Shown here piece by piece: positions 15,955 through 50,159 of a stretch of 64,000 bases of DNA (position 1 is the stretch's first letter; every line of letters starts with the position of its first letter). The position numbers were made by a program, and so were the translations under genes. This stretch comes from an uncultured Actinomycetes bacterium (GTDB taxonomy: Bacteria; Actinomycetota; Thermoleophilia; Gaiellales; Gaiellaceae). The DNA lies in assembly GCA_963700495.1 (NCBI GenBank), contig CAVOXT010000002.1, positions 72,075 through 136,074 of the forward strand, written 5' to 3'. The notes under the pieces are model-generated. The model was given only the letters and a program-made list of their open reading frames with translations. It was not told the DNA's origin and did no database searches.

Positions 15955-15978
15955 CTGTCGCTCGCCTTCGGCCCCTCC

Positions 15979-16003: not shown

Positions 16004-16023
16004 GAGCCCCTTCTTCTTGTCTT

Positions 16024-16048: not shown

Positions 16049-16082
16049 CCCCTCCACCCGCTCACGGGCTAAGAACTGGCCC

Positions 16083-30336: not shown

Positions 30337-30405
30337 TCCAGGCGGGGTCGCCTACGTCCCACTCGACCGAGCAGTTCCCTCCGGCCGCCCTGGCCGGGGA
30401 CATCG

Positions 30406-31379: not shown

Positions 31380-31381
31380 GC

Positions 31382-31401
31382 CCGAGCCGCCGAAGGCTCG
31401 G
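31382..31401 (+). terminator. stem-loop CCGAGCC-gccgaa-GGCTCGG directly after the polyprenyl synthase stop
   Basis: A perfect 7-bp stem starts 3 nt after the TGA, with no U-tract. It is followed by a 150-nt non-coding gap. Confidence 0.4.
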
Positions 31402-31531
31402 AGACTTGTAACACGGAGCCCGCGTAGGAGAGACTAGGAACAAGCCTCTCCGACGCCACAGGGGGACGCTAATCGCCGCAGACGGTCTTGAGGATGCGAG
31501 GCTGGAACAGGCCATCGCGTATCTGTCCAGC

Positions 31532-32197: not shown

Positions 32198-32203
32198 GGC
32201 GGC

Positions 32204-33892
32204 GTGAAGGCGTTCTCGCACCCTCCCCAGGTGCCCGCCCAGCCCGAGGCGGTACTGCCGGCCGTGATGCTGTCGCGCTACCTCTTCTTTCTCACGCAGC
32301 GGCCGATCAGCCGAAGCAACACGCACTACGTCCGGCAGCGCATCCACGGCATGCAGTCGCTCGGCCGGCTGTTGGAGGAAGCCGACCACGAGCTCATGTC
32401 GGCGAGCCTTCGCCTCCTGCAGACGCTCGATCCCGGCAACCTGCACGAGACTTCCGAGCGCCTCCAGCTGACCCTCTTCCCCTTCGCACGAGCGGACATC
32501 CCGGCCACGTACATCAGCGCCGACGCGCCGCCGCCTCCCGAGTTCCTTCGTTCGTGCGAGCGCATCCTCCTGGTGCTGGGACCGGCGATCGGGATCGGGG
32601 ACGAGATCGTCACGTTCCCACTCCCCCAGTGGATCAAGCGGGCGAATCCGGCTGCTCACCTGACGACCCTCACCGCATACGAGGGCCTCTGGGACGGAGT
32701 GGCCGCCGTCGACCGTGTCGCCACCTACCGCGACTTCGCCGCCGTCGTCGGTGCGATGCGAGGCGACGACGACATCGGCAAGGCCGACCTCGTGCTCCTC
32801 GTCGACTTCGAGAACCCGGAGCTCTATCGGGCGGTCACCGCGGAGAAGGAGATCGCGAAGTACGCAGAGCTGTCGCTCGGCGCCCGCGTCCTCGCAGCGG
32901 TCGACAACGTCGAGGGCTGGACGTACCACCAGACGCTGCCTGTTGCCTACTTCAGGAACGTCTACGACGGCTTCGACGAGTTGGCCCGCTGCCTCGGCGT
33001 CACTCCGGACCCGGCCGATCGGCTCGACCCGAGCTCCAGCAGCGGCGACGGGAGCGGTGAGCTGCGCGTGTTCGTGTCACCGTTCTCGTCGAAGTACGAC
33101 CCGTCGCCGCGTTACTGGAGCACGCTCTTGTCGACGCTGATCCCGGACGGCGCAGGACGGGCGGTGCAGTTCGTCCTCGACCCCGGGCCGAACTCGACCA
33201 CGCATCGGTTCGCGACCGAGGTCGCCCGCGCAGCGGCGGCCCGCGGCAGGCAGGCCGCGGTCTCGTATGCCGTTGCGGGCGCCGACGGAGGGCGGCTTCC
33301 CCTGTCAGGCGTCTTCGAGGAGCTGAAGCGCGCGGACGTCGTGGTGTGCGCGGATTCGTTCGCGGCGCACGCGGCCCCGCGCATGGCGTGCACGACGCTC
33401 GTGGTCGCGAGCCCCGGTCTCGAGAACTGGAGGGTCCCGAGCGACCGCAGCTACTACTTCGACGCCGAGACGCCGATCGGCGAGCTCGTAGCCGGCATGC
33501 GCCAGATCCTCGAGCTGCACGGCATCGGGCAGACGGTCACGGCTCGACCGTCGGTCGGTGACGCCGAGGAACGTCTCGCCCACGCCGACGCCGAGCTCGA
33601 ACGCGCCGTGGCGGCGAACGCGAGCCTCGTGGAACTCTGCGCAGCGTACGAGCGGTTCCGCGCAGCGAGGGACGAGGTGGTCAACCGGCTCGAGGCCTGG
33701 CCTCCGTCCGCCGCAACGCTCACCGGCGACTACGCGTACGAGATTCCCGCACGGGACCTGAACGGGGACCACACCTTCCCCGCGGGGCTCGAGCCGGATA
33801 CGCGGATCTTCGTGAAGAACCACTGGCTGACGTGGCGGAACACGAATCTCCGCAAGTACCTGGACTCCCGCCTGGAGGAGACCCGCGCATGA
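32204..33892 (+). CDS. glycosyltransferase family 9 (heptosyltransferase)-like protein with long extensions
   Basis: 'RILLVLGPAIGIGDEIVTFPL' and 'ADVVVCADSFAAHAA' resemble the two GT9 core motifs. 562 aa. Confidence 0.6.
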   Translation: MKAFSHPPQVPAQPEAVLPAVMLSRYLFFLTQRPISRSNTHYVRQRIHGMQSLGRLLEEADHELMSASLRLLQTLDPGNLHETSERLQLTLFPFARADIPATYISADAPPPPEFLRSCERILLVLGPAIGIGDEIVTFPLPQWIKRANPAAHLTTLTAYEGLWDGVAAVDRVATYRDFAAVVGAMRGDDDIGKADLVLLVDFENPELYRAVTAEKEIAKYAELSLGARVLAAVDNVEGWTYHQTLPVAYFRNVYDGFDELARCLGVTPDPADRLDPSSSSGDGSGELRVFVSPFSSKYDPSPRYWSTLLSTLIPDGAGRAVQFVLDPGPNSTTHRFATEVARAAAARGRQAAVSYAVAGADGGRLPLSGVFEELKRADVVVCADSFAAHAAPRMACTTLVVASPGLENWRVPSDRSYYFDAETPIGELVAGMRQILELHGIGQTVTARPSVGDAEERLAHADAELERAVAANASLVELCAAYERFRAARDEVVNRLEAWPPSAATLTGDYAYEIPARDLNGDHTFPAGLEPDTRIFVKNHWLTWRNTNLRKYLDSRLEETRA

Positions 33893-34950
33893 TCGCCGCC
33901 GCAGATGTCTCGGTGGAGAGCGCCCGCGCGGTGTTCGCACGTCGGCTCGCGCGAGGACTCGACAGCGTCAGCAGGGGCCAGCACCCGAGCGGCGAGATGC
34001 TGTCGTTCCGCCGCGACCGGGAGGGCAACTACACGTACATCCGAAGCCCGTTCCTGTCGACGTTCGTGCACGACGCGCTCGCCTGCTTCGATCCGACCTC
34101 GCCCGGCTGGCTCGACGGCAGTCTCGAGCTGCTTCCCGAGCGCTCACAGGCGCGTTTCGTGCGGACCGTCGTGGAGCTGCGGCAGCGGATTCGCAGCTTC
34201 CTGATCTGGCAGCAGGAGGCGACCGGCTACTGGCGGTTCTTCGGACGGGGGAGCGGCATCGACCCGGACGTGAACTCGACCGCGTGCGCCTCGGTGGCGT
34301 TGCTCGAAGGGCACGGCGTCCGGAGCCTGACGCGGTGGGAGCTCCAGCAGTCGCTGATCCTCTCGTTCCGCTCGGCGGACGGCCCGTTCTTCACGTTCCT
34401 GAAGCCGCGGCAAGGCGGATACGGGTGGCTGAGCGACGAGGGCGTTCCGGTCGTCGGCTTCGACCGCGTGGTCAACGCGGAGGTGCTTCGCTACCTCGCC
34501 CGAGTGGGCCGTGGCGCGACGCCCGAGGCGAGCAGCCTCGCCGACTGGCTGCTCGGCGAGACAACCGGGACGGACGCCCTGACCGGCTCGCCGCTCTACC
34601 CCAATCCGGTCTCCTTCGTGTACGTCCTCGGCAGGGCTCTCGAAGAGTCAGACGTGCCCGCCCTGAACGAGGCACTGCTGCGGCTGGTGCTACGGCTGCA
34701 GCAGGCCGACGGCGGCTTCGGCGGCCCGCTGAGCACTGCGATGGGCGCGACGACGATGCTCACCCTCGGCCACCGCGGCTCCGAGCTGGACTCGGCCCGG
34801 CTGGCGGTGCTGCGGGCGCGTGGCTCCGGCGACTCGTGGACGTACGAAGACTTCGTCGTCCACGGCTTCGGCGCTCCGGCGTGGACGACGGCGCTCTCGA
34901 TGGCATTCCTTGCTCGCCACCACTGCGCGACAGGCGAGGCTCCGGCATGA
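33889..34950 (+). CDS. prenyltransferase/terpene-cyclase-like alpha/alpha-toroid protein
   Basis: The ATG at 33889 overlaps the upstream stop (ATGA). QW-like repeats are present: 'WQQEATGYWRFFG', 'RSADGPFF' and 'LQQADGGFGG'. Confidence 0.6.
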   Translation: MIAAADVSVESARAVFARRLARGLDSVSRGQHPSGEMLSFRRDREGNYTYIRSPFLSTFVHDALACFDPTSPGWLDGSLELLPERSQARFVRTVVELRQRIRSFLIWQQEATGYWRFFGRGSGIDPDVNSTACASVALLEGHGVRSLTRWELQQSLILSFRSADGPFFTFLKPRQGGYGWLSDEGVPVVGFDRVVNAEVLRYLARVGRGATPEASSLADWLLGETTGTDALTGSPLYPNPVSFVYVLGRALEESDVPALNEALLRLVLRLQQADGGFGGPLSTAMGATTMLTLGHRGSELDSARLAVLRARGSGDSWTYEDFVVHGFGAPAWTTALSMAFLARHHCATGEAPA

Positions 34951-36031
34951 CGACGACGCGCACCGACCTGCTCGGGACAATCGACGCACTCCACGAGGCG
35001 TGCGCGGGAAACGCAAGCGCTTCAAAGCCGACCGCGGCGAGCAGATCGACGGCTACCGCAGCTTGATCAGCGCAGGGATCGACGACGCGCTCGCGCAGCT
35101 GCAGGTCGAGATGTCGGAGCTCTCTGCGGGAAACGAGGTCGTCCAGCAGGTCGCCGAGCAGATGTCGGCATACGTCGCGTGGATGCAGTGGTCGCTCTGG
35201 GATCTCCCGGTTCTGGCGGTGGCGCTCGACCCGGATCCCGACGAGTTTCGCGACGCCGTCACCGCGTGCGGCCTTGCCTACATCGCGATCCGCGCGTTCG
35301 ACGACGTGATCGACCAGCACTTCACCTACAAGGGGCGGCGGGACACGCTGCTCGGCACGGTCAGCGCCACCTACGCAGACACGCAGCAGGCCAGAGGACT
35401 CAGCACGCTCGCCGGGTTGCTGCTGTGCTTCGAGGGTCTCGGCCGGCTCGCATCGCGAGGCGACCGCCGCCGCGACGCTCACAGGCGTGCTCGGCTCGCT
35501 CCGGCGGGCCGTGATCGGGGCGATGATGGAGTACACCCCCGCGCGGCAGTGGTCCGACGAGGACTACGTGCGGATGGTGCGGCTGAAGAACGTCGACTAC
35601 TGGCGGGCGCTGTACTCCGCCGTCGACCCGGAGCGCGCCTCCCCGCTCTACCCGTTCCTGGAGCGCTACTACGAGGTCGCCCAGTACCTGAACGACGTCG
35701 AGGACTACGACGACGACGTCCGGCGCGGACAGCCCAACCTGCTCGCGCTGCACGGCAACGGCAACGGCAACTGCAGGCCGGTCGACGATCCGCGGCCGTG
35801 GGCCGTGACCGACCAGATCGAGGCGATGCTCGCCGACCGGGTGCTCGATCTGGGGACGGTGGCCGCGGGCCTCGACGCCACCGAGCGGGCCGTCGCCGAG
35901 TCGAAGCTGGCCGACCTGCTCGACGCCGCGCGGGGCGCGGGGCTCTTCGCGGACGGCGCGCGGCGACAACGGACGCCGGAGGCCGTCGACGCCCTCGAGC
36001 TCTACCCGTTCTCCGAGCTCGACGGACGTGA
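34947..36031 (+). pseudogene. class-I terpenoid-synthase-fold protein (at least 3 frame breaks)
   Basis: The start overlaps the upstream stop (ATGA). Pieces lie in three listed ORFs: 34284..35066 (tail: MTTTRTDLLGTIDALHEA), 34820..36031 (AIRAFDDVIDQHF) and 35487..36560 (YYEVAQYLNDVEDYDDDVRRGQPN). The end is inferred from a GTGA overlap at 36028-36031. Confidence 0.5.
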
Positions 36032-36875
36032 TCGAGCAGGGCGGGCGGCAGGTCGATCGTCGACGTGCCCTGCGGTGCGTGCGGAAGCGGCGACCGGCGC
36101 GATCTCTTCCGCAAGCAGGGATTCCGCTTCCATCGCTGCCGCTCGTGCAGCGCACGTGTACGTCAGTCCTCGCATCTCCGACGACCTCCACGACAGGGTC
36201 CGTCGCCGTCCGACGACGGCGGGCCTCCCGACAAGTACCTCGAGGTGCAGCGCATCTACGCCGAGCACATCTGCGACCTGCTCCGGCAGCGGACACCCGG
36301 CGCGCGGCTGCTGGACATCGGCTTCGGGCGCGGCTACGTGCTGCAGATGGCCCAGGTGTACGGGTTCGAGGCCTACGGCCTCGACAGCTCTCCCGCAAGG
36401 GTCGAGCCGATGCTGCCGCTGTTCGGGCACCGCGTCGCGCACGCCGTCGTCGGGCGAGACCCGTTTCCGTGGGACTCGTTCGACGTCGTCGTCTTCAGCC
36501 ACGTGCTCGAGCATCTCCCGAACCCCGGCGGTGCGCTCGTCGACATCGCCTCGATCATGAATCCGGGCGGCTGGCTCTACGTCGCCGTACCCGACGTCGA
36601 CTCGATGGACTTCAAGATCTTCGGCAAGCACTGGGACGTCATCAGCCCGCTCGTCCACCTCCAGTACTTCACGGAGGAGTCGCTGACGCGCGTCCTCGAG
36701 TCCAGCGGCTTCCAGGACGTCCAGCGCATCCGGCATCCCCACCTGCGCGACGAGGTCTCGCCGCGGTGGATGCGGCTGATGCGCCAGCTCGGCGGAAGCG
36801 AGTTGAGCGAGCTGACGATGCTCGCCAAGGTGCCCGACGACCCGGCGTTCTTTCCGGTCGAGGACGGCGGGCTGA
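36028..36875 (+). pseudogene. class I SAM-dependent methyltransferase with N-terminal zinc ribbon (about 3-4 frame breaks)
   Basis: The main body lies in ORF 36065..36991 (CGACGS..RCRSC, 'LLDIGFGRGY', 'VVVFSHVLEHLPNP'). The segment 'HVYVSPRISDDLHD' is readable only in another frame between about 36150 and 36200. Confidence 0.7.
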
Positions 36876-36876
36876 C

Positions 36877-37943
36877 GTGCGGGTCCTCGTGCTCACGGCC
36901 GACTACGCGCCGGGCGCCTGGTCCGGGATCGGGACCGCGGTGGCCGTGCAGGCTGCGGCGGTCGCCCGGCGGGGTTTGGACGTCGACGTGATGGTCCCGG
37001 AGGACCGCATCGCGCGAGGTGCGGCGCAGACCGCGCGGCTGCGAGTGCGTCCGTTGAACCGCTCACGCTTTCCGTGCAGGCCGGACGACTTCGACGTCGT
37101 CCACCTCCACTCGCTCGGGTTCACCGAGCTGGCGCTGCAGATCCGGAGCAGGTTCGGCATCCCGCTCGTCTACACCGCGCACGCGTCGCTCCGCGACGAG
37201 CTTCCCAGGCAGACCCTCCGGGTGGACGCGGGTGCAGGACCTCGTGATCGCTCGGAGCGACCACGTCGTGTTCCCGAGCGCGGCCGAGCGGGCTGCGGCG
37301 ACGCACCGTACGCCCGGCCTGGCGAAGCGGAGCAGCGTGCACCCGAACGGCGTCCCTCCCGCCGTCGTGCACTGCGACGCCTCCGCAAGAACCGGGCCGA
37401 TCGTGTTCGCCGGACGGTTTGCGGAGACGAAGGGCCTGGCGCTGCTGAGCGAGATCGTCGACTCGCTCGACGGCCACCCGGCGATCCGCTTCGTGCTCGC
37501 CGGTGGGCACGCGGAGCCTGCAGGCCGCCGCATGGTCGCCGATCTCGTCGCCCGCCATCCCGAACGGTGCCGGACCGTCGGTTGGCTCGCGCCGGCCGCG
37601 CTGCAGCGGCTGTTCGCGAGGGCGAGCATGGTGCTGGTGCCGAGCCGGTACGAGCCGTTCGGACTGGTGGCGCTCGAGGCGATGCGGGCGGGGGCGCCCG
37701 TCCTCGCCGCTGCGACCGGAGGGCTCCGCGAGGTCGTCGGCCCGGGATCGGGCGGCCTCCTCGTCCGCTCCCGACGCCCCGAAGACTGGTGCGCGGCCAT
37801 CCTCGAGCTCTGGAGATCACCGGGGCTGCGGACCTCGCTGGCACGACGCGGCCCAAGCTACGTCGCAGAGCGCTACGACCCGGACACCCTGGCGGGTGCG
37901 CTGGTCGACGAGGTGTACCGGCCGCTCGCCGCGGGAGGTGTGA
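36877..37943 (+). pseudogene. GT4-family (GT-B) glycosyltransferase (frame break near 37205)
   Basis: The N-terminal half lies in ORF 36028..38493 (VRVLVLTADYAPGAWSGIG..VHLHS). The C-terminal half lies in ORF 37232..38050 (FAGRFAETKG, 'PSRYEPFGLVALEAMRAGAPV'). Confidence 0.75.
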
Positions 37944-38721
37944 GCGTGACGCCTTCGCGACCAGGTCGTTGCGATCACGGGGGCGTTCACGCGGCATCGG
38001 CAAGGCGATCGCGCTCCGACTTGCGCGCGAAGAGCCGCGGCACGTCGTGATCGGCTACGTGTCGAACAACAACGCGGCACGGGCAACGGTCGACGAGCTG
38101 TCGGAGCTCGGCGTCCCGGCGACGACCGTCCGCGTGGACGTCGCGCAGGAGCAGATGCTGCGCGAGATGTTCGACCGCATCCGCAACGAACTCGGCCGAT
38201 TCGACGTGTTCGTCAGCAACGCGGCGCGGACGACGTTCCGCCCCGCGATGGAGCTCAACGTCACGCAACTGGCAGAAGATCATGGACATCAACGCCCGCG
38301 CGTTCCTGCTCGGGTCGCAGCTGGCGGCCGAGCTCATGCGCGAGGGAGGCGGCGGCCGGATCATCGCGATCAGCAGCCTCGGATCACGCTTCGCCGTGCC
38401 CGACTACTCGGGTCTCGGCGCCGCCAAGGCGGTCATCGAGACGCTCGCGCAGGTACCTCGCGGTCGAGCTGGCGCCGTGGGGCATCAACGTGAACGTCGT
38501 CTGCGGCGGCTTCGTCGACACGCCAGCATGCGCCTCGCCGCCGACTATCGCGAGCTCACCGAGCATCTCGTCGCGAAGACGCCTGCCGGCCGGCTCGCGA
38601 CAGCCCGACGACCTCGCCGGGATCGTGGCGTTTCTCTGCTCACCCGACTCGGACTGGATCCGGGGCCAGACGCTGGTCGCCGACGGCGGCTACTCCGTCG
38701 GCCCTCTCACGCCGGACATGA
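37940..38721 (+). pseudogene. SDR-family oxidoreductase (enoyl/ketoacyl reductase-like; at least 4 frame breaks)
   Basis: Pieces are 'VVAITGAFT' + 'GIGKAIALRLA', 'VFVSNAA', 'IIAISSLGS..YSGLGAAKAV' and 'GINVNVVCGGFVDT..LVADGGYS', spread over three frames. Confidence 0.65.
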
Positions 38722-39481
38722 CGATGACGCTCTCGAGATTCGACGGTCGCGTCGGCGCTGGTCACCGGCGGCTCGCGTGGGATCGGCCGCGCGATCGCCG
38801 TCCAGCTCGCACGCGAGGGCGCCGGCGTGGTCGTCGACTACGTGCGCGCCGAGGAGCGAGGCCGAAGCGGTCGTCGAGGAGATCACCTCGTCGGGCGGAG
38901 ACGCCCACGCTGTTCCAGGCGGACGTCGCGACGAGGCCGAGGTGAAGGAGCTCGTGCGCTTCGCGGTCCGACGCTCGGCGGCATCGACGTGCTCGTCGCC
39001 AACGCAGGAACGGTGCAGGATCAGCTCGTGGGGATGATGACGCGTGAAACAGTGGGACACCGTGCTCGACGTCAACCTGCGCGGAGCGTTTCTCTGCATT
39101 CGCGAGGTCCTGCCGTTCCTGATGCGACAAGAAGTCGAGCTCGGTCGTGTGCCTCTCGTCTGTCGCCGCCGTACAAGGCGGGACGGGGCCACGCCAACTA
39201 CGTCGCCGCAAAGGGCGGGCTGAACTCGATGGTGAAGTCGCTGGCCGTGGAGCTGGCGCCGAAGGGCGTCCGGGTGAACGCCGTCTCGCCCGGTGTTATC
39301 GCCACGCACATGTCGGAACGGGTGCCGACGGCTGGCGGGCGACGAGATCCTGGACGGAATACCGCTGCAACGCTACGGCGAGCCGGACGACGTCGCGCAG
39401 GCCGTGTGCTTCCTCGCCTCCGACGACGCGAGCTACGTCACCGGAGAGATTCTTCAAGTCACGGGAGGGTTCGGACTATGA
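38718..39481 (+). pseudogene. fabG: 3-oxoacyl-ACP reductase (about 9 frame breaks in 760 nt)
   Basis: Pieces are 'MTMTLSRFDGRV', 'ALVTGGSRGIGRAIA', 'IDVLVANAG', 'SSVAAVQGGTG', '[17 protein letters not shown]' and '[17 protein letters not shown]'. They alternate between all three frames. Confidence 0.75.
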
Positions 39482-40060
39482 ACAGCACGTCGCAGGCCGA
39501 CGTGGGCCGCCTCGGACGAGGTCGCCCTGAAGGTCCGAACGCTGACCGCAGAGAACCTCGAGCTCGACCTGGAGGACGTGCAGATGGAGTCGTCGTTCTT
39601 CGAGCTCGGTGCCGAGTCGCTCGACCTGCTCGACGTTGCCTTTGCGCTCGAGAGCGAGTACCGGATCTCGTTCCCCCGCACCGACATCCTCGAGCGGGCG
39701 ACCGAGCACTTCGGCGAGGAGGCGCTGGTCAAGGACGGACTCGTCACCGACCTGGGGCTGCAACTCCTGCGCGAGGGAATGCCCGAGTTGGACCCGGACC
39801 TGATCAAGCCCGGGCTGCGCGACACGGATGTCGCCCAGAAGATCACCGTCGGAAGCTTCGCGCGGATCACACAGCGACTGATCGACGCGAAAGCCGACTT
39901 CTCTCGGACTGCCCCGAGTGCGGGAGCCGCCTCGTCGAGTCGGAGATCATGCCCGAGTTCGAGTGCCCCGGCTGCGGCAAGATCGTTCCCGTTCCGAGCG
40001 GCGACGAGTGCTCTGCAGGATCTCATCGACCTGCACCAGCAGACCGTGGGGGCTCAGTGA
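39478..40060 (+). pseudogene. acyl-carrier-protein-like protein with internal insertion and C-terminal zinc ribbon (3 frame breaks)
   Basis: The ATG overlaps the fabG stop (ATGA). 'FFELGAESLDLLDVAFALESEY' (the Ser attachment motif) lies in ORF 39578..40060. 'CPECGSRLVESEIMPEFECPGCGKIVPVPSGDE' lies in the frame of ORF 38827..40506. The end 'ALQDLIDLHQQTVGAQ' returns to the first frame. Confidence 0.6.
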
Positions 40061-40506
40061 GGTTCCTGCTCGTCGACTCGATCTTGGAGCTCGAGACCGG
40101 TGCACGCGCCGTCGGGGTCAAGAACATCTCGATGAGCGAGGACTTCCTGGCCGACCACTTTCCCGACCGGCCGATCATGCCGGGCATGCTCATCCTCGAG
40201 TCGCTCGTCCAGCTCGCGGACTGGGTCGTTCGCGATGCGAGCAACTTCGACAAGATCGGCGTGGCCGCGGGTTTCGACCGGATCAAGTTCCGCCGCGTCG
40301 CGCGCCCCGGCGACCAGCTCCGGCTGGAGGTCGGCTTGAGCTCGTCGGATGACGGAACGCACGAGTTCCGAGGCAAGGCGTACAGCGGTGACGAGCTTGC
40401 CGCCTCGGCGAACATCACCATGATCGAGGCTCCGCTCGAGGACTATCTCGACGCCGATGCGGCGCGTGCTTCCCTTGCGATCCTGCGGCGGGACGGCGTC
40501 CCGTGA
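40057..40506 (+). CDS. FabZ/FabA-like hotdog 3-hydroxyacyl-ACP dehydratase
   Basis: The GTG at 40057 overlaps the upstream stop (GTGA). 'EDFLADHFPDRPIMPGMLILESLVQ' carries the catalytic His motif. Confidence 0.8.
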   Translation: MRFLLVDSILELETGARAVGVKNISMSEDFLADHFPDRPIMPGMLILESLVQLADWVVRDASNFDKIGVAAGFDRIKFRRVARPGDQLRLEVGLSSSDDGTHEFRGKAYSGDELAASANITMIEAPLEDYLDADAARASLAILRRDGVP

Positions 40507-41805
40507 GCACGGCCCCCCGCCGTGTCGTCATCACCGGCATGGGCGCTCTCACCTCGCTCGGTACCGACGTGGAGTCGAGTTGGGAGGCAGTGCTGGCGGG
40601 CCGGTCGGGCGTGCGCCAGATCAAGCAGTTCGAGAGCGACGAGTTCCCGGTGAACATCGGCGAGCGAGGTCGACGTCGACGAGCTGGAGGTCGACGGGTT
40701 CGACGAGTCGCTGCGGCCGTTCGTCACGCGCTCGGTGAAGCTGGGCGCGTGGGCCATGACCGAGGCGTGGGAGCAGGCGGGGCTCGAAGGGGGCAGCTAC
40801 GACCCCTGGCGGACGGGGCTCATCGTCGGCGCCTCCAACTTCCCCGTCATCGAGGAGTCCGAGTACAGCTGGCCGACCGAGGCACTCAACGTCGAGCGCT
40901 ACAAGGACCAGTACCTGGCCATCTGCGAGGACATGCCCCAGCTGCTGGCCCAGCGCGAGATCGGGATGGTCTCCGCCCTGCTTGCCGCCCCGTACCCGAT
41001 CAAAGGGCCGTGCATGACGGTGCAGTCCGCCTGCGCGTCGGCGACCCAGGCGATCGGCGAGGCCCTCCAGATGATCCGGCACGGCCAGGCGGACCTGATG
41101 GTGGCCGGAGGCGCGGACAGCATGCTCTCGGCCGTCTGCGTGACCGGCTTCACGCTGTTGACGGTCGCTTCGACCTATCGCGGCGACCCGGGCAAGGCCT
41201 GCCGGCCGTTCGACCGCAAGCGTGACGGCCTCGTCCTGGGCGAAGGTGCGGGGATCGTCATCCTCGAGAGCCTGGAAGCCGCACAGGACCGCGGCGCACC
41301 GATCCTCGCCGAGGTCGTCGGCTACGGCTCGTCGGCGGACGGGTACCGCTTCACGGACAGCCATCCGGAAGCGCGCGGCGCAGTGCAGTGCATGCGCGCG
41401 GCGCTCGCCGACGCCGACCTCCAGCCGGAAGACATCGACTACATCAACGCTCACGGGACCGGCACGCCGCAGAACGACCGCACCGAGACGTTCGCGATCA
41501 AGCAGGTGTTCCGGGACCACGCCTACGCGATTCCCGTGAGCTCCACGAAGTCCCAGCTCGGACATCTGCTGTGCGCCTCGGGCGGAGTCGAGCTCGTGAT
41601 CACGGTCGAGGCTCTGCGAAAGGGAATCGTCCCCCCGACGATCAACCTCGAGAACCCCGACCCGGACTGCGATCTCGACTACGTGCCGCACACGCCTCGC
41701 GAAGCGGACCTCGAGCTCGGGCTCTCGAACTCGTTCGGGTTTGGCGGCCAGAACGGCACGCTCATCGTCCGCCGCTCGGACGCCGCCACGGGAGCGGCCG
41801 GGTAA
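40503..41805 (+). pseudogene. beta-ketoacyl-ACP synthase (FabF/KS-alpha type; one frame break near 40665)
   Basis: 'RVVITGMGALTSLG' lies in ORF 40503..41225. The rest lies in ORF 40735..41805: the active-site Cys 'TVQSACASATQAIG', 'INAHGTGTPQND' and 'KSQLGHLLCASG'. Confidence 0.9.
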
Positions 41806-42269
41806 TGCGCTTCCTGCTCTTCGATCGCATCACCGAGGCCGAGCGCGGAAAGCGGATCCAGGGCGTCAAGCTGGTGAGCCTCACGGACGGCGCGCTCGCC
41901 GACCACTACCCGCGCCGAGCGGTGCTGCCGCCGACGTTGGTCGTCGAGGCCATGGCGCAGCTCGGTGGAATGCTCCACGTCCTCAACCACGACTTCTCGG
42001 TCGAGATGCTGTTGGTGCTCGTCGACCGCGTGAAGCTGGCTCGCCCGGTGCTTCACGGCGAGACGATCACGATCGAGGTCTGGTCGGAGTACGACCACCC
42101 GTACGGCGCGACCATGAACGGCGAGGCACGAGTCGACGGAGACGTGGTTGCGACCGCCGGCCGCATCGTCTACGCGCACGAGATCATCACCGACCCGAAG
42201 CGGATCCAGAAGGCACGGGATCGCTTCGCCTACCAGGGCGGCTCGCCCGCCGAGGTGTGGGTCGCGTGA
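41805..42269 (+). CDS. second hotdog-fold dehydratase-like protein
   Basis: The ATG at 41805 (TAATG overlap) lies inside ORF 41388..42269. The sequence 'MRFLLFDRITE..ALADHYPRRAVLPPTLVVEAMAQ' parallels the first dehydratase. Confidence 0.7.
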   Translation: MRFLLFDRITEAERGKRIQGVKLVSLTDGALADHYPRRAVLPPTLVVEAMAQLGGMLHVLNHDFSVEMLLVLVDRVKLARPVLHGETITIEVWSEYDHPYGATMNGEARVDGDVVATAGRIVYAHEIITDPKRIQKARDRFAYQGGSPAEVWVA

Positions 42270-43543
42270 GCGTCGCGGTCGTGACGGGAGTGGGTGTCGT
42301 GTCGCCGCTGGCGACGAGCGCGGCCGAGCATTTCGATGCCTGGATCGAGGGACGGTCCGCCGTCGCGGAGTCCGCCGAGCCCGAGTTCGAGAAGTACGCG
42401 CCCCAGCTCGAGGCCCGGGTCACCGGCTTCGACCGGAAAGAGGCGATCTCCAGCCGCATGCTCAGGAAGCTGCTGGCGCCGAGCGCGGGCTTCGCGGTCG
42501 GCGCCGCCGGAGAGGCGATCGCCGACGCCGGGCTCTCCGGCGAGCCCGAGGTGCTCGCGGACTGCGGGCTCTACATCGGATCGCTCTCGCTGGAGATCGA
42601 CCCCGACGTCTTCATCGCACCGCTGCGGGCGTCGCTCACGAGGGAGGGCGAGTTCGACCTGTCGCTGTTCGCCCAGCGGGGGATGAAGCTGCTCGATCCG
42701 CTGTTCCTCGTCCGCGCGCTGCCGAACGCCGGCCTCTGCGGAGTGTCTCTCGAGCATCAGGTGCTCGGACCGAACACGAACCTCACGAACGGCCCGACCT
42801 CGGGACTCGCGGCCGTCGCGCTGGCGGTGGCAGCGGTCGAGCGCGGCGAGATCCGCTGCGCGATCGCCGGCGGCTACGACTCGCTGCTCGTGATGGACGC
42901 CCTCGCCGAGCATCTGATCGCCGGACGCCTGGCCCGGAACGGCGGTGCGCCCGAACGGGCATGCCGCCCCTTCGACCGCACCCGCGAGGGATACGCGCTC
43001 GGGGAAGGCGCCGCCTTCGTCGTCGTGGAGTCGGTCGAACACGCCCGGGAGCGCGGGGCGAACTCCTACGGCCGAATCCTCGGCTACTCGAGCACCACCG
43101 ACCCGGGTCTCCTCGGCCCTTCGAGCCCCTTGGACGGCACTGCGCTCGAGCAGGCTGCCCGCCTGGCCCTCGAACGCGCGGGGACGGCCCCCGCGGAGCT
43201 CGGCGCCATCTTCGGCGACGGTCTTGCAACCGAGCTGGACGACATCCGGGAGAGCGACGCCGTCGGCCGCGTGCTCGACGGGGCCAAGGTGCCCTTCACC
43301 GCGCCGACGAGCGCGATCGGCTACACCGGCGCCGCCAGCGGGGTGTTCTCGCTGCTCCATGCCCTGGTCGCGGTCCGCCGAGGAGTGGCCCCGCCGCTCG
43401 CGAACTGCGACGAGCTCGACCCTCGCTGCCCGGTCCACCACCACTCCACTCCTGCGCCGCTCTCTCCGGAGACGGTCCTCGTGTGGAACAGCGAGCGCGG
43501 CGTCAAGAACGTCGCGATGGTCGCCGGCCCCGACGCCCCCTGA
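42266..43543 (+). CDS. KS-like partner lacking the catalytic triad (chain-length-factor-like)
   Basis: The GTG at 42266 (GTGA overlap) lies inside ORF 41741..43543. It has a thiolase fold, but 'NLTNGPTSGLAA' replaces the A-C-A-S-G Cys site and 'FGDGLATELDD' replaces 'HGTGT'. Confidence 0.8.
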   Translation: MSVAVVTGVGVVSPLATSAAEHFDAWIEGRSAVAESAEPEFEKYAPQLEARVTGFDRKEAISSRMLRKLLAPSAGFAVGAAGEAIADAGLSGEPEVLADCGLYIGSLSLEIDPDVFIAPLRASLTREGEFDLSLFAQRGMKLLDPLFLVRALPNAGLCGVSLEHQVLGPNTNLTNGPTSGLAAVALAVAAVERGEIRCAIAGGYDSLLVMDALAEHLIAGRLARNGGAPERACRPFDRTREGYALGEGAAFVVVESVEHARERGANSYGRILGYSSTTDPGLLGPSSPLDGTALEQAARLALERAGTAPAELGAIFGDGLATELDDIRESDAVGRVLDGAKVPFTAPTSAIGYTGAASGVFSLLHALVAVRRGVAPPLANCDELDPRCPVHHHSTPAPLSPETVLVWNSERGVKNVAMVAGPDAP

Positions 43544-43553
43544 GAGCCGGAAG

Positions 43554-44393
43554 GTGTACGTCCTCGCCGCTCTGCTCATCCCGGTCGCGGTGGCAACCGC
43601 GCTCCTCACGAGGCTGTTCCTGCGCCAGGACCGCCTGATCTTCCGGCCCGGACCGGTGCTCGACCGCAGCCCGGCGAGCATCGGGATCCCCCACGAAGAG
43701 CTGCGGCTGGCGGCCGACGACGGAACGAGCGTGACCGCCTGGTGGGTCGCCGGAGCCGCGGAGGCACCGGTCGTCCTCTACTTCCACGGCAGCGAGGGCA
43801 ACCTCACCCACGAGCTGCCGGTCGTGCACTTCCTCAACTCGCTCGGTGTCAACGCGCTGCTCGTCGAGTACGTCGGCTACGGCTCGGACGAGTTGCGGCC
43901 GAACGAAGCCGGCTGCTACCGGACCGCCGACGCGGCCTGGAGGTACCTGACGCAGGATCGGGGTTTCGCCGAGGACCAGGTGATCCTGTTCGGGCACTCG
44001 CTCGGGGCCGCCGTGGCGGCACGCAGCGCCGCAGGGCGTGGCTGCGCAGGGCTCGTTCTTCAGAGCGGCTTCACCTCGGTGAAGGATCTCGCTGCGCGCG
44101 CCTACCCGTACCTGCCGGTCCGGCCGTTCCTGCGGACCCGCATGGACGTGCTCGAGCCGGTCCGGCGCAGCCGGTGCGCGGTGCTCGTCATCCACTCGCG
44201 AGACGACGAGCACATTCCCTACGAGCAGGGCCGGCGCCTGTTCGACGAAGCCCGCGCGACGAAGAAGCTCGTCACGCTCCGGGGGTCGCACTTCGGCCTG
44301 ACCTGGCACCGCTCACCCGAGATCAGGGCCGCGTGGCGCGAGCTGCTCGCACGGGACTTCAGCACCTGGGCGGCGCAGGCAGAGAGCAGCTGA
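43554..44393 (+). CDS. alpha/beta hydrolase (ABHD/BEM46-like) with N-terminal TM helix
   Basis: The GTG at 43554 follows a GGAAGG Shine-Dalgarno sequence. Motifs are 'VVLYFHGSEGN', 'LFGHSLGAAVA' and 'VIHSRDDEHIP'. Confidence 0.8.
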   Translation: MYVLAALLIPVAVATALLTRLFLRQDRLIFRPGPVLDRSPASIGIPHEELRLAADDGTSVTAWWVAGAAEAPVVLYFHGSEGNLTHELPVVHFLNSLGVNALLVEYVGYGSDELRPNEAGCYRTADAAWRYLTQDRGFAEDQVILFGHSLGAAVAARSAAGRGCAGLVLQSGFTSVKDLAARAYPYLPVRPFLRTRMDVLEPVRRSRCAVLVIHSRDDEHIPYEQGRRLFDEARATKKLVTLRGSHFGLTWHRSPEIRAAWRELLARDFSTWAAQAESS

Positions 44394-45016
44394 TGCGGGA
44401 CGAGGTCCGCCGGATCGCGCTCGGGACCAAGGGCTTCCTCACCGAGCCCGAGGGATTGCGCCTGTACGAGCTGGCACGCAGCAGCTCGGGCGACGGACCG
44501 TGTCTCGAGATCGGCTCCTACTGCGGCAAGTCGGGACTGTTCCTCGGGGAAGGGTGCCGGGAGACCGGCCGGCATCCGCTGTTCACCGTTGACCACCACC
44601 GCGGCTCCGAGGAGCACCAGCCGGGAGAGGCGTACCACGACGCCGAGCTCTACGACGACGGCGAGCAGGCGATGACGACGCTGCCTGAGCTGGTCCGGAA
44701 CATCCGGACGGCCGGGTTGGAGAGCTGGGTTATCCCGCTCGTCGCCGAGTCGGAGATCCTCGGCCGGTATTGGCCCGAGCACAGTCTCAGCCTCCTGTTC
44801 CTCGACGGCGGGCATTCGGAGTCGGACGCCTTCGGCGACTACCGGACCTGGCACCGCTGTCTCCGGCCGGGCGGGTACCTGTGCATCCACGACGTCTTCC
44901 CCGACGCGACCGACGGCGGTCAGGCTCCGTACGGCGTCCTCTGCGAGGCGAGGTCGGACGACTCCTGGCAGTACGAGGGGATGGTCGAGACCCTCGCCGT
45001 CCTGAAGCGGCTGTGA
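44393..45016 (+). CDS. class I SAM-dependent (O-)methyltransferase
   Basis: The ATG at 44393 (TGATG overlap) lies inside ORF 43742..45016. Motifs are 'CLEIGSYCGKS', 'LLFLDGGHS' and 'LRPGGYLCIHDV'. Confidence 0.75.
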   Translation: MRDEVRRIALGTKGFLTEPEGLRLYELARSSSGDGPCLEIGSYCGKSGLFLGEGCRETGRHPLFTVDHHRGSEEHQPGEAYHDAELYDDGEQAMTTLPELVRNIRTAGLESWVIPLVAESEILGRYWPEHSLSLLFLDGGHSESDAFGDYRTWHRCLRPGGYLCIHDVFPDATDGGQAPYGVLCEARSDDSWQYEGMVETLAVLKRL

Positions 45017-46065
45017 GCACTGCGATCCGCTCCTCGCGCCACCTTGGAAAGTTCCCGCGTGCTCGAACGGACACGTGGGTGATGGTCGGCCAGGACGGCG
45101 GCCAGTCGATCGACCTCGGCGATCAGGCCCTCGTCGTCTTCTCCGACACGCTGCTGCTGCCGACCGACGCTTCCGACCAGGTGTCCGACCGGCACAAGAC
45201 CGCGCCCCCCTATGCGGACGACGTCGCGGAGCGCGGCGTGTTCCTGGCGAACTGCGCCGCGCTCGTCGACGGGGCCGATCTGCGTGAGGGCCTCCGCCGC
45301 CTCAGGTTCTTCACGGACGACGACGAGTTCCCCGTCGAGATCCTCGCGCCGACCGAGGACGAGACAGCGGCCGGCCTGCGCTTCTGGCCGGCTCACGGCG
45401 TGGCGTCCGGCGGCGGGGTCTACCTCTACTACCTCGGCATCGAGACGCTCACGCCGCGCGACGTGTGGGACTTCCGCAACGTCGGCGTGGGACTGGCCCG
45501 ACTCGACCCGGAAACGGGCCGCTGCGAACGGATCCGTGTCGACGGCGACTGGTGCCTGTGGCGGCCGCGGTCCGACGACTTTCACTTCGGCGTACAGGCG
45601 GTCCGGCACGACGGTCAGGCGTACGTCTTCGGGAGCACGCGCCACGGGCTGGACGTCTCGGCGCTGCTCGGCCGTGTGCCGCTCGAGGAGATCGCCGACC
45701 CGGGTGCGTACGAGTTCTACGACCCGGGACGCGACGCGTGGCTCGCCGACTCCGGTCTGGCCGGAAGTCTCGGCCCGTGCGGCAGTGACTTCTCAGTCTC
45801 GTTCAACGCGTACCTCGGCCGGTGGCTGATGGTGTACGTCGACGCGTTCAGCAAGCAGCTCGCGCTCAGGCTCGCCGATCGGATCGAGGGGCCCTACTCC
45901 GAGCCGGAGATCGTCGGGCGGTTGCCTCATGCACCCGCGAGCGACCTGGTCTATCTCGGGTTCGAGCATCCGAAGTTCGCGCGCGACGACGGCCGCCGCG
46001 TTCTGGTCTCCTACTGCGAGCCCCGCTTCGAGATGTGCTCGCTCCTCGAGGTCTCGTTCCAATGA
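45013..46065 (+). CDS. DUF4185-like protein (beta-propeller glycoside-hydrolase-like)
   Basis: The GTG at 45013 overlaps the upstream stop (GTGA). 'GQSIDLGDQALVVFSDTLL', 'FWPAHGV' and 'VYLYYLG' resemble DUF4185 as I recall it. Confidence 0.5.
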   Translation: MSTAIRSSRHLGKFPRARTDTWVMVGQDGGQSIDLGDQALVVFSDTLLLPTDASDQVSDRHKTAPPYADDVAERGVFLANCAALVDGADLREGLRRLRFFTDDDEFPVEILAPTEDETAAGLRFWPAHGVASGGGVYLYYLGIETLTPRDVWDFRNVGVGLARLDPETGRCERIRVDGDWCLWRPRSDDFHFGVQAVRHDGQAYVFGSTRHGLDVSALLGRVPLEEIADPGAYEFYDPGRDAWLADSGLAGSLGPCGSDFSVSFNAYLGRWLMVYVDAFSKQLALRLADRIEGPYSEPEIVGRLPHAPASDLVYLGFEHPKFARDDGRRVLVSYCEPRFEMCSLLEVSFQ

Positions 46066-48548
46066 GTGACGAGACGCTGCAGGGTCTCGCGCAGCGCCTG
46101 CCGGCCTTCGGCGACCGGCGCGCGCTCGGGCTGCGCGGCTCGTACGGCAGTCGTTGGTGGACCTATCGTCGGGTGCACGCCGAGGCCTTTCGCTTCGCCG
46201 GCCTCCTCGAGGACCGCGGGGTTCAGGCAGGCGACCGCGTCGCGATCTGGGGCGCCAACGGGCCGGAGTGGGCCGCCGCTGCATTCGGCGCGATGCTCAG
46301 AGGCGCGGTCGTCGTTCCGATCGACGAAGGCACCTCGGCGTCGCATGCCTCGCAGCTCGTCGAGCTCGCCGGACCGCGGCTCGTCTTGCACGACCCGAAC
46401 GTCGACGTCGGCGCGCTCGGCGTTCCGGGTCTGTCCCTCTTCACCGCCGCCGAGCACGCCGGCGAACGCAACGTCGTCGTGCCGGTCGGGCCGGAGGACC
46501 CGGCGTTCCTCCTCTTCACCTCGGGGTCGACGCGCGAGCCGCGCGGCGTGGTGCTGACGCACCGAAACCTCGTCAGCCAGGCCGCCGCTTTCCGACGTTG
46601 GCGATGGCTGACGCGGATGCACGCCTATCGCTTGCTGGCGCTCTCGCCCCTCAGCCACGTGCAGGGCCTCGTGATGGGACTGGTGGTGCCGGCCTCGCTC
46701 GGGCTGAGCGTCCTGTATTCCGAGTCCGTCGAGCCGGCGCACGTGATCCGGACGATCCGTCAGAACCGGATCAACATCCTGCTCGCCGTCCCAAGGGTGC
46801 AGGGAATGCTGGCCGACGCACTGCGCGCGTCCCCGTACGGCGACGGCCGCCGGACCCTCGGCGAGCGAGCGTCGGAGATCCGCGCGTTCGTGCTGCGGCG
46901 CCACGTGCTGTTCCTTGCGACGCGTCGACAGCTCGGCTACTCGTTCGGCGTCCTGCTCGTCGGTGGTGCGACGCTCGCGCCGGACGACGAGCGCTTCTGG
47001 TACGAGTGCGGCTACGTGCTGGCTCAGGGGTACGGCCTCACGGAGACGAGCGCACTCGTTTCGGTCCACGTGAACGGTCCCTTCGGGGCGCGCCTCGGGT
47101 CGGTCGGACGAGCGCTCCCGCACCAGGACGTCCGGATCGGCGCCGACGGCGAAGTCCTCGTGCGCGGTCCGAATGTGACGGGCGGTGACGGCTACCTGCA
47201 CACCGGCGACCTGGGCCGCCTCGATGCGCGCGGACGACTGTGGCTGCGGGGCAGGAAGGACGACGTGATCGTCACCGGCGAGGGCCTCAACGTCCACGCC
47301 GACGACGTCGAAGCGAGCCTCCGTGCCGTCGCGGGTGTCCGCGACGCGGTCGTCGCCGATCTCGACGACGGCGGTCAGGTTCACGCCGTGCTGTTGCTCG
47401 ACGACGGCAGCGCGCCCGGCGAGGTCGTGGCGTCGGCCAATGCGACGCTCGAGCCGTATCAGCGCGTGCACAGCTGGAGCGTCTGGCACGAAGGCGACTT
47501 CCCGCGCACGAGCCTGCTCAAGGTGCGCCGCGCCGAGGTGATCGGCGCAGCCCGCGCCGGCAACGGCGGCACGGCGAGGCCGGACGCCGCCCCCGACCTC
47601 GGGACGATTCGCGCCGAGGGCGACCGCCGCCGCCGGTTGCAGCTGCTGGCCCGCTACCTCACGGATCCCGACAGTGGGAGCGACCCCGACGCGCAGATCG
47701 AGGACTTCGGGCTGAGCTCGCTCGACGCGGTCGAGCTGCTTGCGATGATCGAGGTGATCGAAGCGAGGCCGATGCCGCAGCTCTCGATCACACCGGCAAC
47801 AACCGTCGCCGAGCTCCGCCGTTCGGTCTCGGGTCCGTCCCCAAAGCGCGTGCTGCCGACGCGCCAGCCTAGGTGGTCCGCCGCGTTGCCCGGGCGGTTG
47901 ATGCGACTCGCGACCCGGCCGCTGCTCGTCGGGAGCTGGGCACACCTCGCGGCGGGAGTCTCGGTCGTGCACGACCGCCCCCCGCGCGGGCAGTGCGTCC
48001 TCGCCGTCGCCCCGCACCGTCACTGGCTCGACGCGTTCGCGGTGCAAGCCGCCCTGCCCGCAGGGACGCGCACCATCACGGTCACGAACCGCGACTTCGC
48101 CGAGCACTTCGCACCGACCGACGACGTGCCGCGCCGCGCGCGGTTTGCGGTCGGCTTCGCGTACCACCTTCTCTGGCCGATGGTCTTCCAGTTCGCGATC
48201 GTGCCGAACTACGGAAGCACGCGAGAGGGGCTCCAGGAGCTCGGCACAGCGATCGACCGCGGGCTCAGTCCGATCTCGTTCCCGAAGGGACTCGCGCCAC
48301 CGGGACAGCCCAACCCGCGTCACGAGCCCGGGATCGCCGAGCTCGCGACGCAGACCCAGCTGCCGGTGGTTCCCGTCTGGATCGACGGCAACGACGAGCT
48401 CGGCGTGCTGCCCCGCCGCAGAAGGCCCCGGGTGACGGTCCGGTTCGGCGAGCTCATACCCGTCGGTCCGCAGACCGAGCCGAACGAGGTGGTCGAGCGC
48501 GTCGAGGCCGCCTACGAGCTGCTTGCACGTGCGGGGGGCATGCGATGA
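46062..48548 (+). CDS. tri-domain fusion: acyl-AMP/CoA ligase - phosphopantetheine carrier - PlsC-type acyltransferase
   Basis: The ATG at 46062 overlaps the upstream stop (ATGA). Adenylation motifs are 'LLFTSGSTREPRGV', 'QGYGLTETS', 'YLHTGDLG' and 'GRKDDVIV'. The carrier motif is 'DFGLSSLDAVEL', and the acyltransferase H-x4-D motif is 'APHRHWLDAF'. The 828 codons are uninterrupted. Confidence 0.85.
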   Translation: MSDETLQGLAQRLPAFGDRRALGLRGSYGSRWWTYRRVHAEAFRFAGLLEDRGVQAGDRVAIWGANGPEWAAAAFGAMLRGAVVVPIDEGTSASHASQLVELAGPRLVLHDPNVDVGALGVPGLSLFTAAEHAGERNVVVPVGPEDPAFLLFTSGSTREPRGVVLTHRNLVSQAAAFRRWRWLTRMHAYRLLALSPLSHVQGLVMGLVVPASLGLSVLYSESVEPAHVIRTIRQNRINILLAVPRVQGMLADALRASPYGDGRRTLGERASEIRAFVLRRHVLFLATRRQLGYSFGVLLVGGATLAPDDERFWYECGYVLAQGYGLTETSALVSVHVNGPFGARLGSVGRALPHQDVRIGADGEVLVRGPNVTGGDGYLHTGDLGRLDARGRLWLRGRKDDVIVTGEGLNVHADDVEASLRAVAGVRDAVVADLDDGGQVHAVLLLDDGSAPGEVVASANATLEPYQRVHSWSVWHEGDFPRTSLLKVRRAEVIGAARAGNGGTARPDAAPDLGTIRAEGDRRRRLQLLARYLTDPDSGSDPDAQIEDFGLSSLDAVELLAMIEVIEARPMPQLSITPATTVAELRRSVSGPSPKRVLPTRQPRWSAALPGRLMRLATRPLLVGSWAHLAAGVSVVHDRPPRGQCVLAVAPHRHWLDAFAVQAALPAGTRTITVTNRDFAEHFAPTDDVPRRARFAVGFAYHLLWPMVFQFAIVPNYGSTREGLQELGTAIDRGLSPISFPKGLAPPGQPNPRHEPGIAELATQTQLPVVPVWIDGNDELGVLPRRRRPRVTVRFGELIPVGPQTEPNEVVERVEAAYELLARAGGMR

Positions 48549-49816: not shown

Positions 49817-50159
49817 CGTCTACGGGCTGCACCGCGTGCGCCTCCGCCCCGGCGTCGACCCGGAGGAGTTCGAGCGGTTCACGCTCGCGGAGTTCCTGCC
49901 GGCGCTTCAGGCGCTGCACGCTCCGGGTGTGCAGTTCGCGCTCCTGAAAGCAGAGCGCGGCGCGGACGCGGGCGAGTATCAGTTCATGATGGTCTTCGAC
50001 AGCGTCGAGACCCGCGATCGGTACTTCCCGGAGGAAGTTCGCGCGTCGGACGAGCTGATCGAGCTGATCCAGCCGCTCGCACCGCTCGCCGAGGTCTGGG
50101 AGGGGCTGTCGGCCCGCGAGAAGACGGACTGGCTGAGGCTCGGGGACGGCCCGTCGTGA
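49809..50159 (+). CDS. hypothetical small protein (alpha+beta barrel-like?)
   Basis: 116 aa with protein-like composition. It has an 8-nt overlap upstream and a GTGA overlap downstream. Confidence 0.5.
   Translation: MPSVYGLHRVRLRPGVDPEEFERFTLAEFLPALQALHAPGVQFALLKAERGADAGEYQFMMVFDSVETRDRYFPEEVRASDELIELIQPLAPLAEVWEGLSAREKTDWLRLGDGPS

Follow-up and report, generated by a model that had tools for sequence, protein, structure and literature searches.

Acyl carrier proteins (ACPs) are usually minimal four-helix shuttles of ~80 residues, and their specificity for partner enzymes is central to the engineering of fatty acid synthases (FAS) and polyketide synthases (PKS). In the E. coli ape cluster, for example, genes for aryl starter activation accompany a LolA-like/MMPL export set and a pair of short ACPs. 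Here we describe a carrier gene at positions 39478-40060 of a 64,000-nucleotide stretch, hereafter the window, of contig CAVOXT010000002.1 from an uncultured Gaiellaceae bacterium (Actinomycetota). We are highly confident, from sequence comparison, that this interval represents a single 194-residue protein, in which an ACP with an insertion between helices III and IV is followed by a four-cysteine (C4) zinc ribbon and a C-terminal helix, and that single-base assembly errors have cut it into four frame segments. The appearance of a ribbon readable only in another frame reads as an assembly artefact of the window, and the family underlying it as real.

Translation of positions 39300-40300 in the three forward frames (frame taken as start position mod 3) recovered all of the strings quoted in the initial annotation of this locus, as well as the layout it had described: an ACP in frame 2, CPECG...CPGCG in frame 1, and frame 2 again to the stop. 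The frame-2 string (39503-39906) runs ..AASDEVALK..FFELGAESLDLLD..ISFPRTDILE..GMPELD..ITVGSFARITQRLIDAKADFSR, the same frame also reading ..AASDEVALKVRTLTAENLELDLEDVQMESSFFELGAESLDLLDVAFALESEYRISFPRTDILERATEHFGEEALVKDGLVTDLGLQLLREGMPELDPDLIKPGLRDTDVAQKITVGSFARITQRLIDAKADFSR, and the frame-1 ribbon string (39907-40008) is DCPECGSRLVESEIMPEFECPGCGKIVPVPSGDE. The ATG at 39478 sits in frame 1 and the ACP in frame 2, so the carrier gene needs four frame changes, not two; the fourth falls at ~39502, failing which the earliest start codon available to the ACP frame would be a GTG at 39578. Both ends of the gene overlap a neighbour: the ATGA at its start overlaps the stop of an upstream short-chain dehydrogenase/reductase (SDR) gene, and the GTGA containing its stop (TGA, 40058-40060) overlaps the GTG (40057) of a FabA/ApeI-like dehydratase (DH) gene (40057-40506; Pfam FabA PF07977, 3.8e-18, for 40060-40506). 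The product predicted from the window appears among the homologue matches described below as a 158-residue oddity (P0032), the middle part of which is an off-frame reading of the ribbon. The argument that a four-cysteine ribbon is unlikely to arise off-frame by chance holds up, as the CxxC-x10-20-CxxC pattern occurs 119 times when the whole 3.4-Mb genome is translated in six frames, giving an expectation of ~0.02 per 600 bp, and the four cysteines are invariant in 78 homologues.

The breaks can be placed at individual bases using two relatives: L014, a 20.6-kb piece of the 238-kb contig that encodes homologue P0001, and L015, a second, independent Logan contig. Aligned with window positions 29473-50060 (blastn), L014 shows 96.6% identity and 54 gap columns, all of single bases, and its carrier gene is intact, encoding the 193 residues of P0001 between the same 4-nt overlaps. 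L015 is 99.2% identical to L014 with 0 gaps, versus 30 gap openings against the window over 36159-41460, and it sides with L014 against the window at the indels. Within the carrier gene, the window has a surplus base close to the N-terminus, one missing base before the ribbon and two missing bases after it (Table 1), the last two having the net effect of returning the reading to frame 2; window and L014 also show an in-frame 3-nt difference at 39486-39490. An ACP-zinc-ribbon fusion hidden by indels had been proposed from the letters alone, and the fusion stands, but the supposed pair of compensating indels does not, being replaced by these four. Dropping the surplus base and allowing for the three missing ones gives a product of 194 residues, the length that had been predicted.

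Evidence that these segments belong together comes from homologues. The segments, joined into a 195-residue test sequence, were searched against a large protein collection, yielding 133 matches, of which the top 120 are nearly all of 190-205 residues, with 90-100% query coverage and up to 93% identity (P0001), and the ribbon is present in all 112 matches of 170-260 residues. ACP, insertion, ribbon and C-terminal helix lie within a single open reading frame (ORF) in the homologue sequences; more than 120 single-ORF proteins of ~195 residues, at the coverage just given, bear out the suggestion that orthologues would carry ACP and ribbon as one polypeptide, and a search for the opposite pattern, an ~85-residue ACP with a stop before the ribbon, came out negative. 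In an alignment of 78 homologues (A1), S46 (the serine of GA[EQ]SLD) and C144, C147, C162 and C165 are invariant, as are P65, R72, G92, E102, R128 and D175; GMPE in the insertion and MPEF in the ribbon are near-invariant, and E153, P158 and E159 are conserved motifs at the ribbon surface.

Searched by profile, a set of 1.84 billion representative proteins yielded 708 clusters (50% identity) at E <= 1e-10, comprising a long form of 180-210 residues with a four-Cys ribbon, the Cys spacing of which varies in distant members, and a short form of ~137 residues that has the same insertion and ends after helix IV. On a tree of these proteins, ribbon gain and loss requires 12 changes versus ~46 for shuffled labels, meaning that ribbon presence is strongly clustered, although truncated metagenome fragments, and irregular Cys spacings that the pattern misses, raise the count of 12, which is therefore no guide to the number of origins. 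At the sequence level, these proteins form one conserved, unnamed family of oversized ACPs. The pairing had been called unfamiliar, and a full-text literature search indeed turned up no account of a zinc ribbon on an ACP; the pairing is not peculiar to this gene, however, but the property of a large family whose members are named in databases, where a name is given, plain "acyl carrier protein" or "phosphopantetheine-binding protein".

The carrier part is recognised by domain model, active-site motif and fold alike. With the PP-binding model PF00550 (cut-off 20.8 bits), the frame-2 segment scores 36.2 bits and the repaired protein 35.1, GAESLD stands at the start of helix II, and the AlphaFold2 (AF2) model contains the ACP four-helix bundle, with best matches in the PDB that are all ACPs. 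The NCBIfam equivalog ACP models (TIGR00517 AcpP, AcpM, AcpXL-like PRK06508) all fall below cut-off (best 40.1 bits versus 71), so the carrier belongs to no named ACP equivalog. The ribbon has two CxxC knuckles (CPEC-x14-CPGC) at a separation within the ~10-20 residues looked for, and a few homologues carry a precomputed PF08271 match; Pfam and NCBIfam contain no dedicated family for an ACP-zinc-ribbon protein.

Structure prediction of the repaired product, which the initial annotation had suggested, was performed with AF2 on A1 and returned one compact fold (mean predicted local distance difference test score, pLDDT, 92.3; predicted template modelling score, pTM, 0.87). Because pTM is high, all parts are predicted to form one rigid globule. 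The ~45-residue insertion that had been noticed before the final helix is placed by the model between helices III and IV, and the ribbon is modelled with short strands at residues 159-161 and 168-170, with no ribbon match returned by the PDB fold search. Foldseek against the PDB returned only ACPs aligned over ~60 residues, except for RPA2022 (2KW2/3LMO), and a profile search of PDB sequences matched positions 13-75 only; by sequence and fold together, the PDB gave nothing for the ribbon or insertion, and by sequence nothing past the ACP core. By model, serine and fold the protein is an ACP, with two additions shown by no solved ACP.

The breaks in the carrier gene are part of a wider pattern. 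Of the indel columns between window and L014, 14 lie in 29998-32883 and 38 in 35016-40661; from 40.7 to 50 kb there is a single indel, intergenic, at 46172. The sequence contexts are mostly non-homopolymer, and a homopolymer-type error model was tried and rejected, most indels lying outside homopolymer runs. Mismatches are evenly spread at 2-4%, and in the broken genes they fall mostly at third codon positions (2/2/17 and 6/1/20 in the two SDR genes, 1/4/14 in the carrier gene), a bias that marks continued purifying selection. Damage is also reciprocal, as assessed by tblastn with proteins of L017, an intact locus of a more distant relationship: L014 is broken and the window intact in 29998-32883, and in 35-40.7 kb the reverse is true. 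L014 thus has a hot zone of its own (L014:500-3430, equivalent to window 29998-32883), where a polyprenyl synthase and the next two genes are split into 2-3 frames and, because of this, the L014 gene calls of 323 and 359 residues are unreliable. Hot zones in different genes of one operon in near-identical genomes are hard to explain biologically.

We searched for further frame slips with a strand-aware codon-phase hidden Markov model (HMM) combined with a stop-codon test, having dropped a strand-blind version with too high a baseline (12-14 switches per 10 kb on intact loci). Applied to the hot zone, the strand-aware model flagged 9 of ~38 known breaks, and it flagged none in the clean 40.7-53 kb; because only about a quarter of true hot-zone indels are detected, its counts are lower bounds. 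Genome-wide it identified 1,141 stop-less same-strand frame slips, which are clumped (per 10 kb, mean 3.4, variance 22.7; 83/338 bins empty; maximum 30). The source genome consists of 6 contigs and is 91% complete. Some of the related loci have "contig_N" names and "MFD...bin" labels of metagenome-assembled genomes (MAGs), and look, from this naming only, like long-read metagenome assemblies.

Weighing this comparative evidence, we consider it very probable that the frame breaks are assembly errors and that the carrier gene is not a pseudogene. The frameshifts could instead be biological, with the carrier a true pseudogene in a recently inactivated accessory cluster, an account that draws on the absence of the cluster from same-genus genomes, which makes it dispensable, and on the gathering of breaks in one part of the operon. 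We regard this as improbable: all 38 indels in 5.6 kb are of exactly 1 nt, unaccompanied by larger deletions or an excess of substitutions; the substitutions keep the third-position bias of purifying selection; in the near-identical relative, a like zone affects other genes of this operon; and over 1,100 similar slips are clumped across the genome. Two further accounts would leave the assembly as it is, and we give both of them almost no credence. In the assembled window, ribbon and ACP differ in frame, as they would if a small zinc-ribbon protein were encoded independently, in another reading frame within an ordinary ACP gene or overlapping it; the initial annotation had also envisaged a small ORF embedded in the gene. 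Yet the ribbon has no start codon at its head and lies inside a long spurious frame-1 ORF (38827-40506), ACP and ribbon share one ORF in 112/112 homologues of 170-260 residues, and the model packs both into one globule, so that the embedded gene has to be given up. Programmed ribosomal frameshifting or other recoding, joining the segments during translation, has nothing in its favour beyond the frame changes themselves; four shifts (+1, -1, -1, -1) would be required within 580 nt, at sites without slippery sequence, and close relatives encode the same residues in a single frame.

Several observations nevertheless weigh against a conserved zinc-ribbon carrier broken by assembly error. Curated zinc-ribbon models stay below cut-off (Pfam 15-17.5 bits versus 27-34; NCBIfam 22.4 versus 61). 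In a Myxococcaceae MAG with the full cluster (L034:6001-6528), the second knuckle is CPADQ rather than CxxC, making the site either a three-Cys-plus-Asp or a degenerate ribbon. The gene for rpoB is intact in one frame, so errors must be local or patchy and not uniform. None of the 13 same-genus genomes searched contains the carrier gene, which would allow decay of an accessory operon in principle. Finally, the verdict on the breaks is itself a comparative one. An orthologue was sought in 40 same-genus or same-order genomes, where only housekeeping ACPs matched (E ~1e-4), and repair of the gene therefore drew on metagenome proteins.

Other frame-break sites came to light in the window and in related loci. 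Window 4949-17098 is another hot zone, with 16 stop-less same-strand slips found by the HMM, denser than the carrier-gene zone, and a lone candidate at 53116, in the otherwise clean 40.7-64 kb, coincides with tandem GT-B-like genes. Locus L017, from a long-contig MAG, contains 8 frameshift candidates, 7 of them in L017:14200-19100, together with an implausible 1218-residue DUF4185-AMP-ligase "fusion", and at L045:1330-2587, likewise from a long-contig MAG, a ketosynthase (KS) is split into two overlapping ORFs. An apparent ACP-ribbon-dehydratase fusion of 333 residues (P0100, from a 142-kb ENA contig) has Arg/Pro/Gly-rich text in place of the C-terminal helix after the ribbon, followed by the dehydratase sequence MRFLLVDS; a further frameshift artefact is the most likely explanation, rather than a real tri-domain protein.

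Table 1. Features of the carrier gene and its surroundings (window positions) and of the predicted protein (residues of the AF2 model).
Feature	Position	Strand	Basis
Start codon and first 8 codons (MNSTSQAD)	39478..39501	+	Frame 1; aligns with MN-RPQAD of P0001 / L014:10001
Surplus G, frame 1 to frame 2	39502	+	L014 GAC-TGG vs window GACGTGG (blastn)
Frame-2 block: ACP four-helix core, ~45-residue insertion, helix IV	39503..39906	+	Pfam PF00550, invariant S46, AF2 secondary structure
PP-binding match	~39530-39700	+	Pfam PF00550
Phosphopantetheine Ser codon (putative attachment)	39617-39619	+	GAESLD motif; S46 of alignment
Insertion including near-invariant GMPELD	~39713-39847	+	AF2 secondary structure
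Helix IV	~39848-39898	+	AF2 secondary structure
Missing base (third of Arg codon cgN), frame 2 to frame 1	39906..39907	+	L014 TCTCGTGACTGC vs window TCTCG-GACTGC
C4 zinc ribbon DCPECG..x14..CPGCG..PSGDE	39907..40008	+	Translation, Cys conservation, AF2 model
Ribbon Cys codons	39910-12, 39919-21, 39964-66, 39973-75	+	Frame 1
Two missing bases (40008/9, 40013/14), codons [I/V/L/M]-L-[M/L/V]	40008..40015	+	L014 GAGATCCTCATGCAG vs window GAG-TGCTC-TGCAG
C-terminal helix QDLIDLHQQTVGAQ and TGA stop	40016..40060	+	Frame 2, last 15 codons; model helix 174-192
Indel hot zone, 38 single-base indels vs L014; hits methyltransferase, GT4, both SDR genes, carrier gene, 5' end of KS gene	35016..40661	.	L014/L015 alignments
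Conserved biosynthetic operon served by carrier	32204..50060	+	Gene tables of L014, L016, L017, L018; tblastn of L014 proteins vs 18 ribbon-form loci
Helices I, II, III, IV and long C-terminal helix	residues 12-25, 46-60, 69-77, 123-139, 174-192		AF2 model
Inserted lobe: small hairpin and two helices	residues 78-122		AF2 model
Ribbon, pLDDT 95-98	residues 144-170		AF2 model

The carrier gene sits within a conserved biosynthetic operon. After genes of unknown function, the order is methyltransferase (641 residues here; 635-650 across loci), GT4 glycosyltransferase, SDR, SDR; ACP-Zn ribbon, ApeI-like DH, KS, FabA-like DH, KS resembling a chain-length factor (CLF); and then alpha/beta hydrolase, methyltransferase, DUF4185, AMP-ligase fusion and GT28. 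The same order is found in L014, L016 (a contig with a 200-residue homologue), L017 and L018 (Chloroflexota), with many junctions overlapping by 4 nt, and the gene tables of these four loci list no other free-standing carrier in the operon; across phyla, the gene order recurs in Chloroflexota, Acidobacteriota and Actinomycetota. In the window translations the KS carries SACAS and HGTGT and its CLF-like partner NGPTSG and DGLATE, both with Pfam ketoacyl-synt matches. A KS with a CLF-like partner lacking the catalytic Cys, as here, is characteristic of aryl-polyene (APE) type clusters, as are the ApeI-like DH and the second FabA-like DH (PF22818 and PF07977, matched on orthologues) and the two SDR genes, putative ketoreductases (KRs). 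Since the carrier gene is absent from the same-genus genomes, the operon is accessory in the source genome and was probably acquired horizontally.

Scored over GTDB species representatives, the long form occurs in Actinomycetota, Chloroflexota, Calditrichaceae, Bryobacterales/Acidobacteriaceae, Thermoanaerobaculia, a gammaproteobacterial MAG and Myxococcaceae. KS and CLF lie within 6 kb of the carrier gene in 18/18 ribbon-form species loci; both SDRs are present in 15-16 of these and both DHs and GT4 in 15, and overall the SDRs, DHs, GT4, methyltransferases, hydrolase and DUF4185 are found in 13-16 of the 18. GT4, methyltransferase, hydrolase and DUF4185 are lacking in 61/62 loci scored as ribbon-less, the exception being L034 with its degenerate ribbon. 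In the cultured Acidobacteriaceae bacterium KBS 96 (L038:6001-9314), a 208-residue ACP-zinc-ribbon gene overlaps an 896-residue fused KS-CLF gene, with genes for DUF4185, a PIG-L deacetylase and a glycosyltransferase upstream of it. A distant ribbon-form member (L020:177-6053) sits between a KS/CLF pair and KR, an LpxA-like acyltransferase and a QueG-like Fe-S protein; as this cluster differs, the carrier type is not tied to a single pathway. Two further cysteine motifs were noted in the window: a CxxC-x18-CxxC, CGACGSGDRRDLFRKQGFRFHRCRSC, at 36071-36148 (+), near the start of the 641-residue methyltransferase gene, possibly a zinc-binding domain at the N-terminus of the enzyme, and two adjacent CPxCG-x10-CxSC motifs at 4012-4140 (-), resembling a double zinc ribbon.

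These features suggest a scheme for the pathway in which the serine of the GAESLD motif (Table 1) would be phosphopantetheinylated, after which KS/CLF, the SDR reductases and both FabA-like (hot-dog) dehydratases would build an acyl chain on the carrier. The chain might then pass to the hydrolase, the AMP-ligase/acyltransferase fusion and the glycosyltransferases, giving a glycolipid-type product. The four cysteines would bind one Zn2+, which would act as a staple holding ribbon and C-terminal helix against the inserted lobe, and the extra surface of such an enlarged, rigid carrier could provide partner specificity (insulation from housekeeping FAS), long-chain shelter, or both. The former role may be favoured by the strict KS-CLF linkage and by the association of the ribbon with tailoring genes; the latter may be considered by analogy with AcpXL-type ACPs. 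A broader proposal, to which we lean less than to its negation, is that carriers with a zinc-stapled extra lobe are an undescribed class of composite carriers, in which the lobe acts as docking or latching surface or as chain shelter and ties the chain to a private type II synthase and glycolipid tailoring enzymes, and which has spread horizontally across at least six phyla.

The ribbon itself might act as a zinc staple or as a docking surface, or combine the two roles. The small C4 zinc ribbon of DUF35/PhlB-type scaffolds docks onto thiolase-superfamily enzymes. That the ribbon of this carrier likewise serves mainly for docking to or latching onto a partner, whether KS-CLF or the off-loading and tailoring enzymes, and not as a structural staple, is a tentative suggestion. 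It accords with the presence of KS and CLF in all 18 ribbon-form loci, with the overlap between the carrier gene and the fused KS-CLF gene in KBS 96, with the company that GT4, methyltransferase, hydrolase and DUF4185 keep with the ribbon form, and with the conservation of E153, P158 and E159 at the ribbon surface. Published work places DUF35/PhlB-type proteins in thiolase-fold enzyme complexes. The comparison is an analogy for possible docking only and claims no homology, DUF35 being an OB fold without a carrier domain. Set against docking, relatives without a ribbon work with similar KS/CLF/DH sets, which shows that KS-CLF in itself can do without one, and the high pTM suits a purely structural role equally well.

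These results bear on two separate matters. The source genome and at least two related long-contig MAGs contain patches in which single-base indels break up real genes, and in such zones gene calls, pseudogene counts and "odd frame" findings are unreliable until the assembly is polished. The family, for its part, is more than twice the usual carrier size, predicted to be rigid and zinc-stapled, and kept with a private KS/CLF/KR/DH set in Actinomycetota, Chloroflexota, Acidobacteriota, Calditrichota and Myxococcota. Nature may here illustrate how a carrier can become orthogonal or suit an unusual chain, and the family marks an uncharacterised, widespread lipid pathway, which the cultured strain KBS 96 makes experimentally testable.

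Compared with described systems, the cluster resembles the aryl-polyene type in its core only. It has a single oversized ACP, glycosyltransferases, DUF4185 and an AMP-ligase fusion, and the gene tables of L014 and L016-L018 contain no aryl starter activation genes, no LolA-like/MMPL export genes and no pair of short ACPs; because these are missing, we do not class it as an APE cluster. With canonical type II ACPs (E. coli AcpP, AntF, ApeE/ApeF) the carrier shares the PP-binding domain, a (D/E)SLD serine at the start of helix II and its setting as a free-standing carrier beside KS/CLF, KR and FabA-like DH genes, and AcpP, PfACP and AntF are matched by Foldseek over ~60 residues (template modelling, TM, score 0.60-0.66 normalised to target). 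Unlike these proteins of ~80 residues, it has ~195, with a 45-residue III-IV insertion containing GMPE, a C4 ribbon and a C-terminal helix.

Two other groups of carriers invite comparison. The ribbon-less "long ACPs" of ~137 residues (Thermodesulfobacteriota, Polyangium) have the same ACP core and insertion (profile positions 13-140) and sit in KS/KR/ACP/2xDH/KS clusters (KS/CLF/KR/2xDH), but have neither ribbon nor C-terminal helix, and their clusters, with one exception, lack GT4, methyltransferase, hydrolase and DUF4185. The RPA2022/AcpXL type (2KW2, 3LMO) is the sole solved structure aligned past the core, over 129-135 columns, with a TM score of 0.69-0.71 normalised to target and 0.38 normalised to query; at 94-101 residues and 20-22% identity, it has no zinc ribbon or equivalent insertion, but it too is an enlarged ACP for a special lipid chain, encoded with its own KS, DH and KR set.

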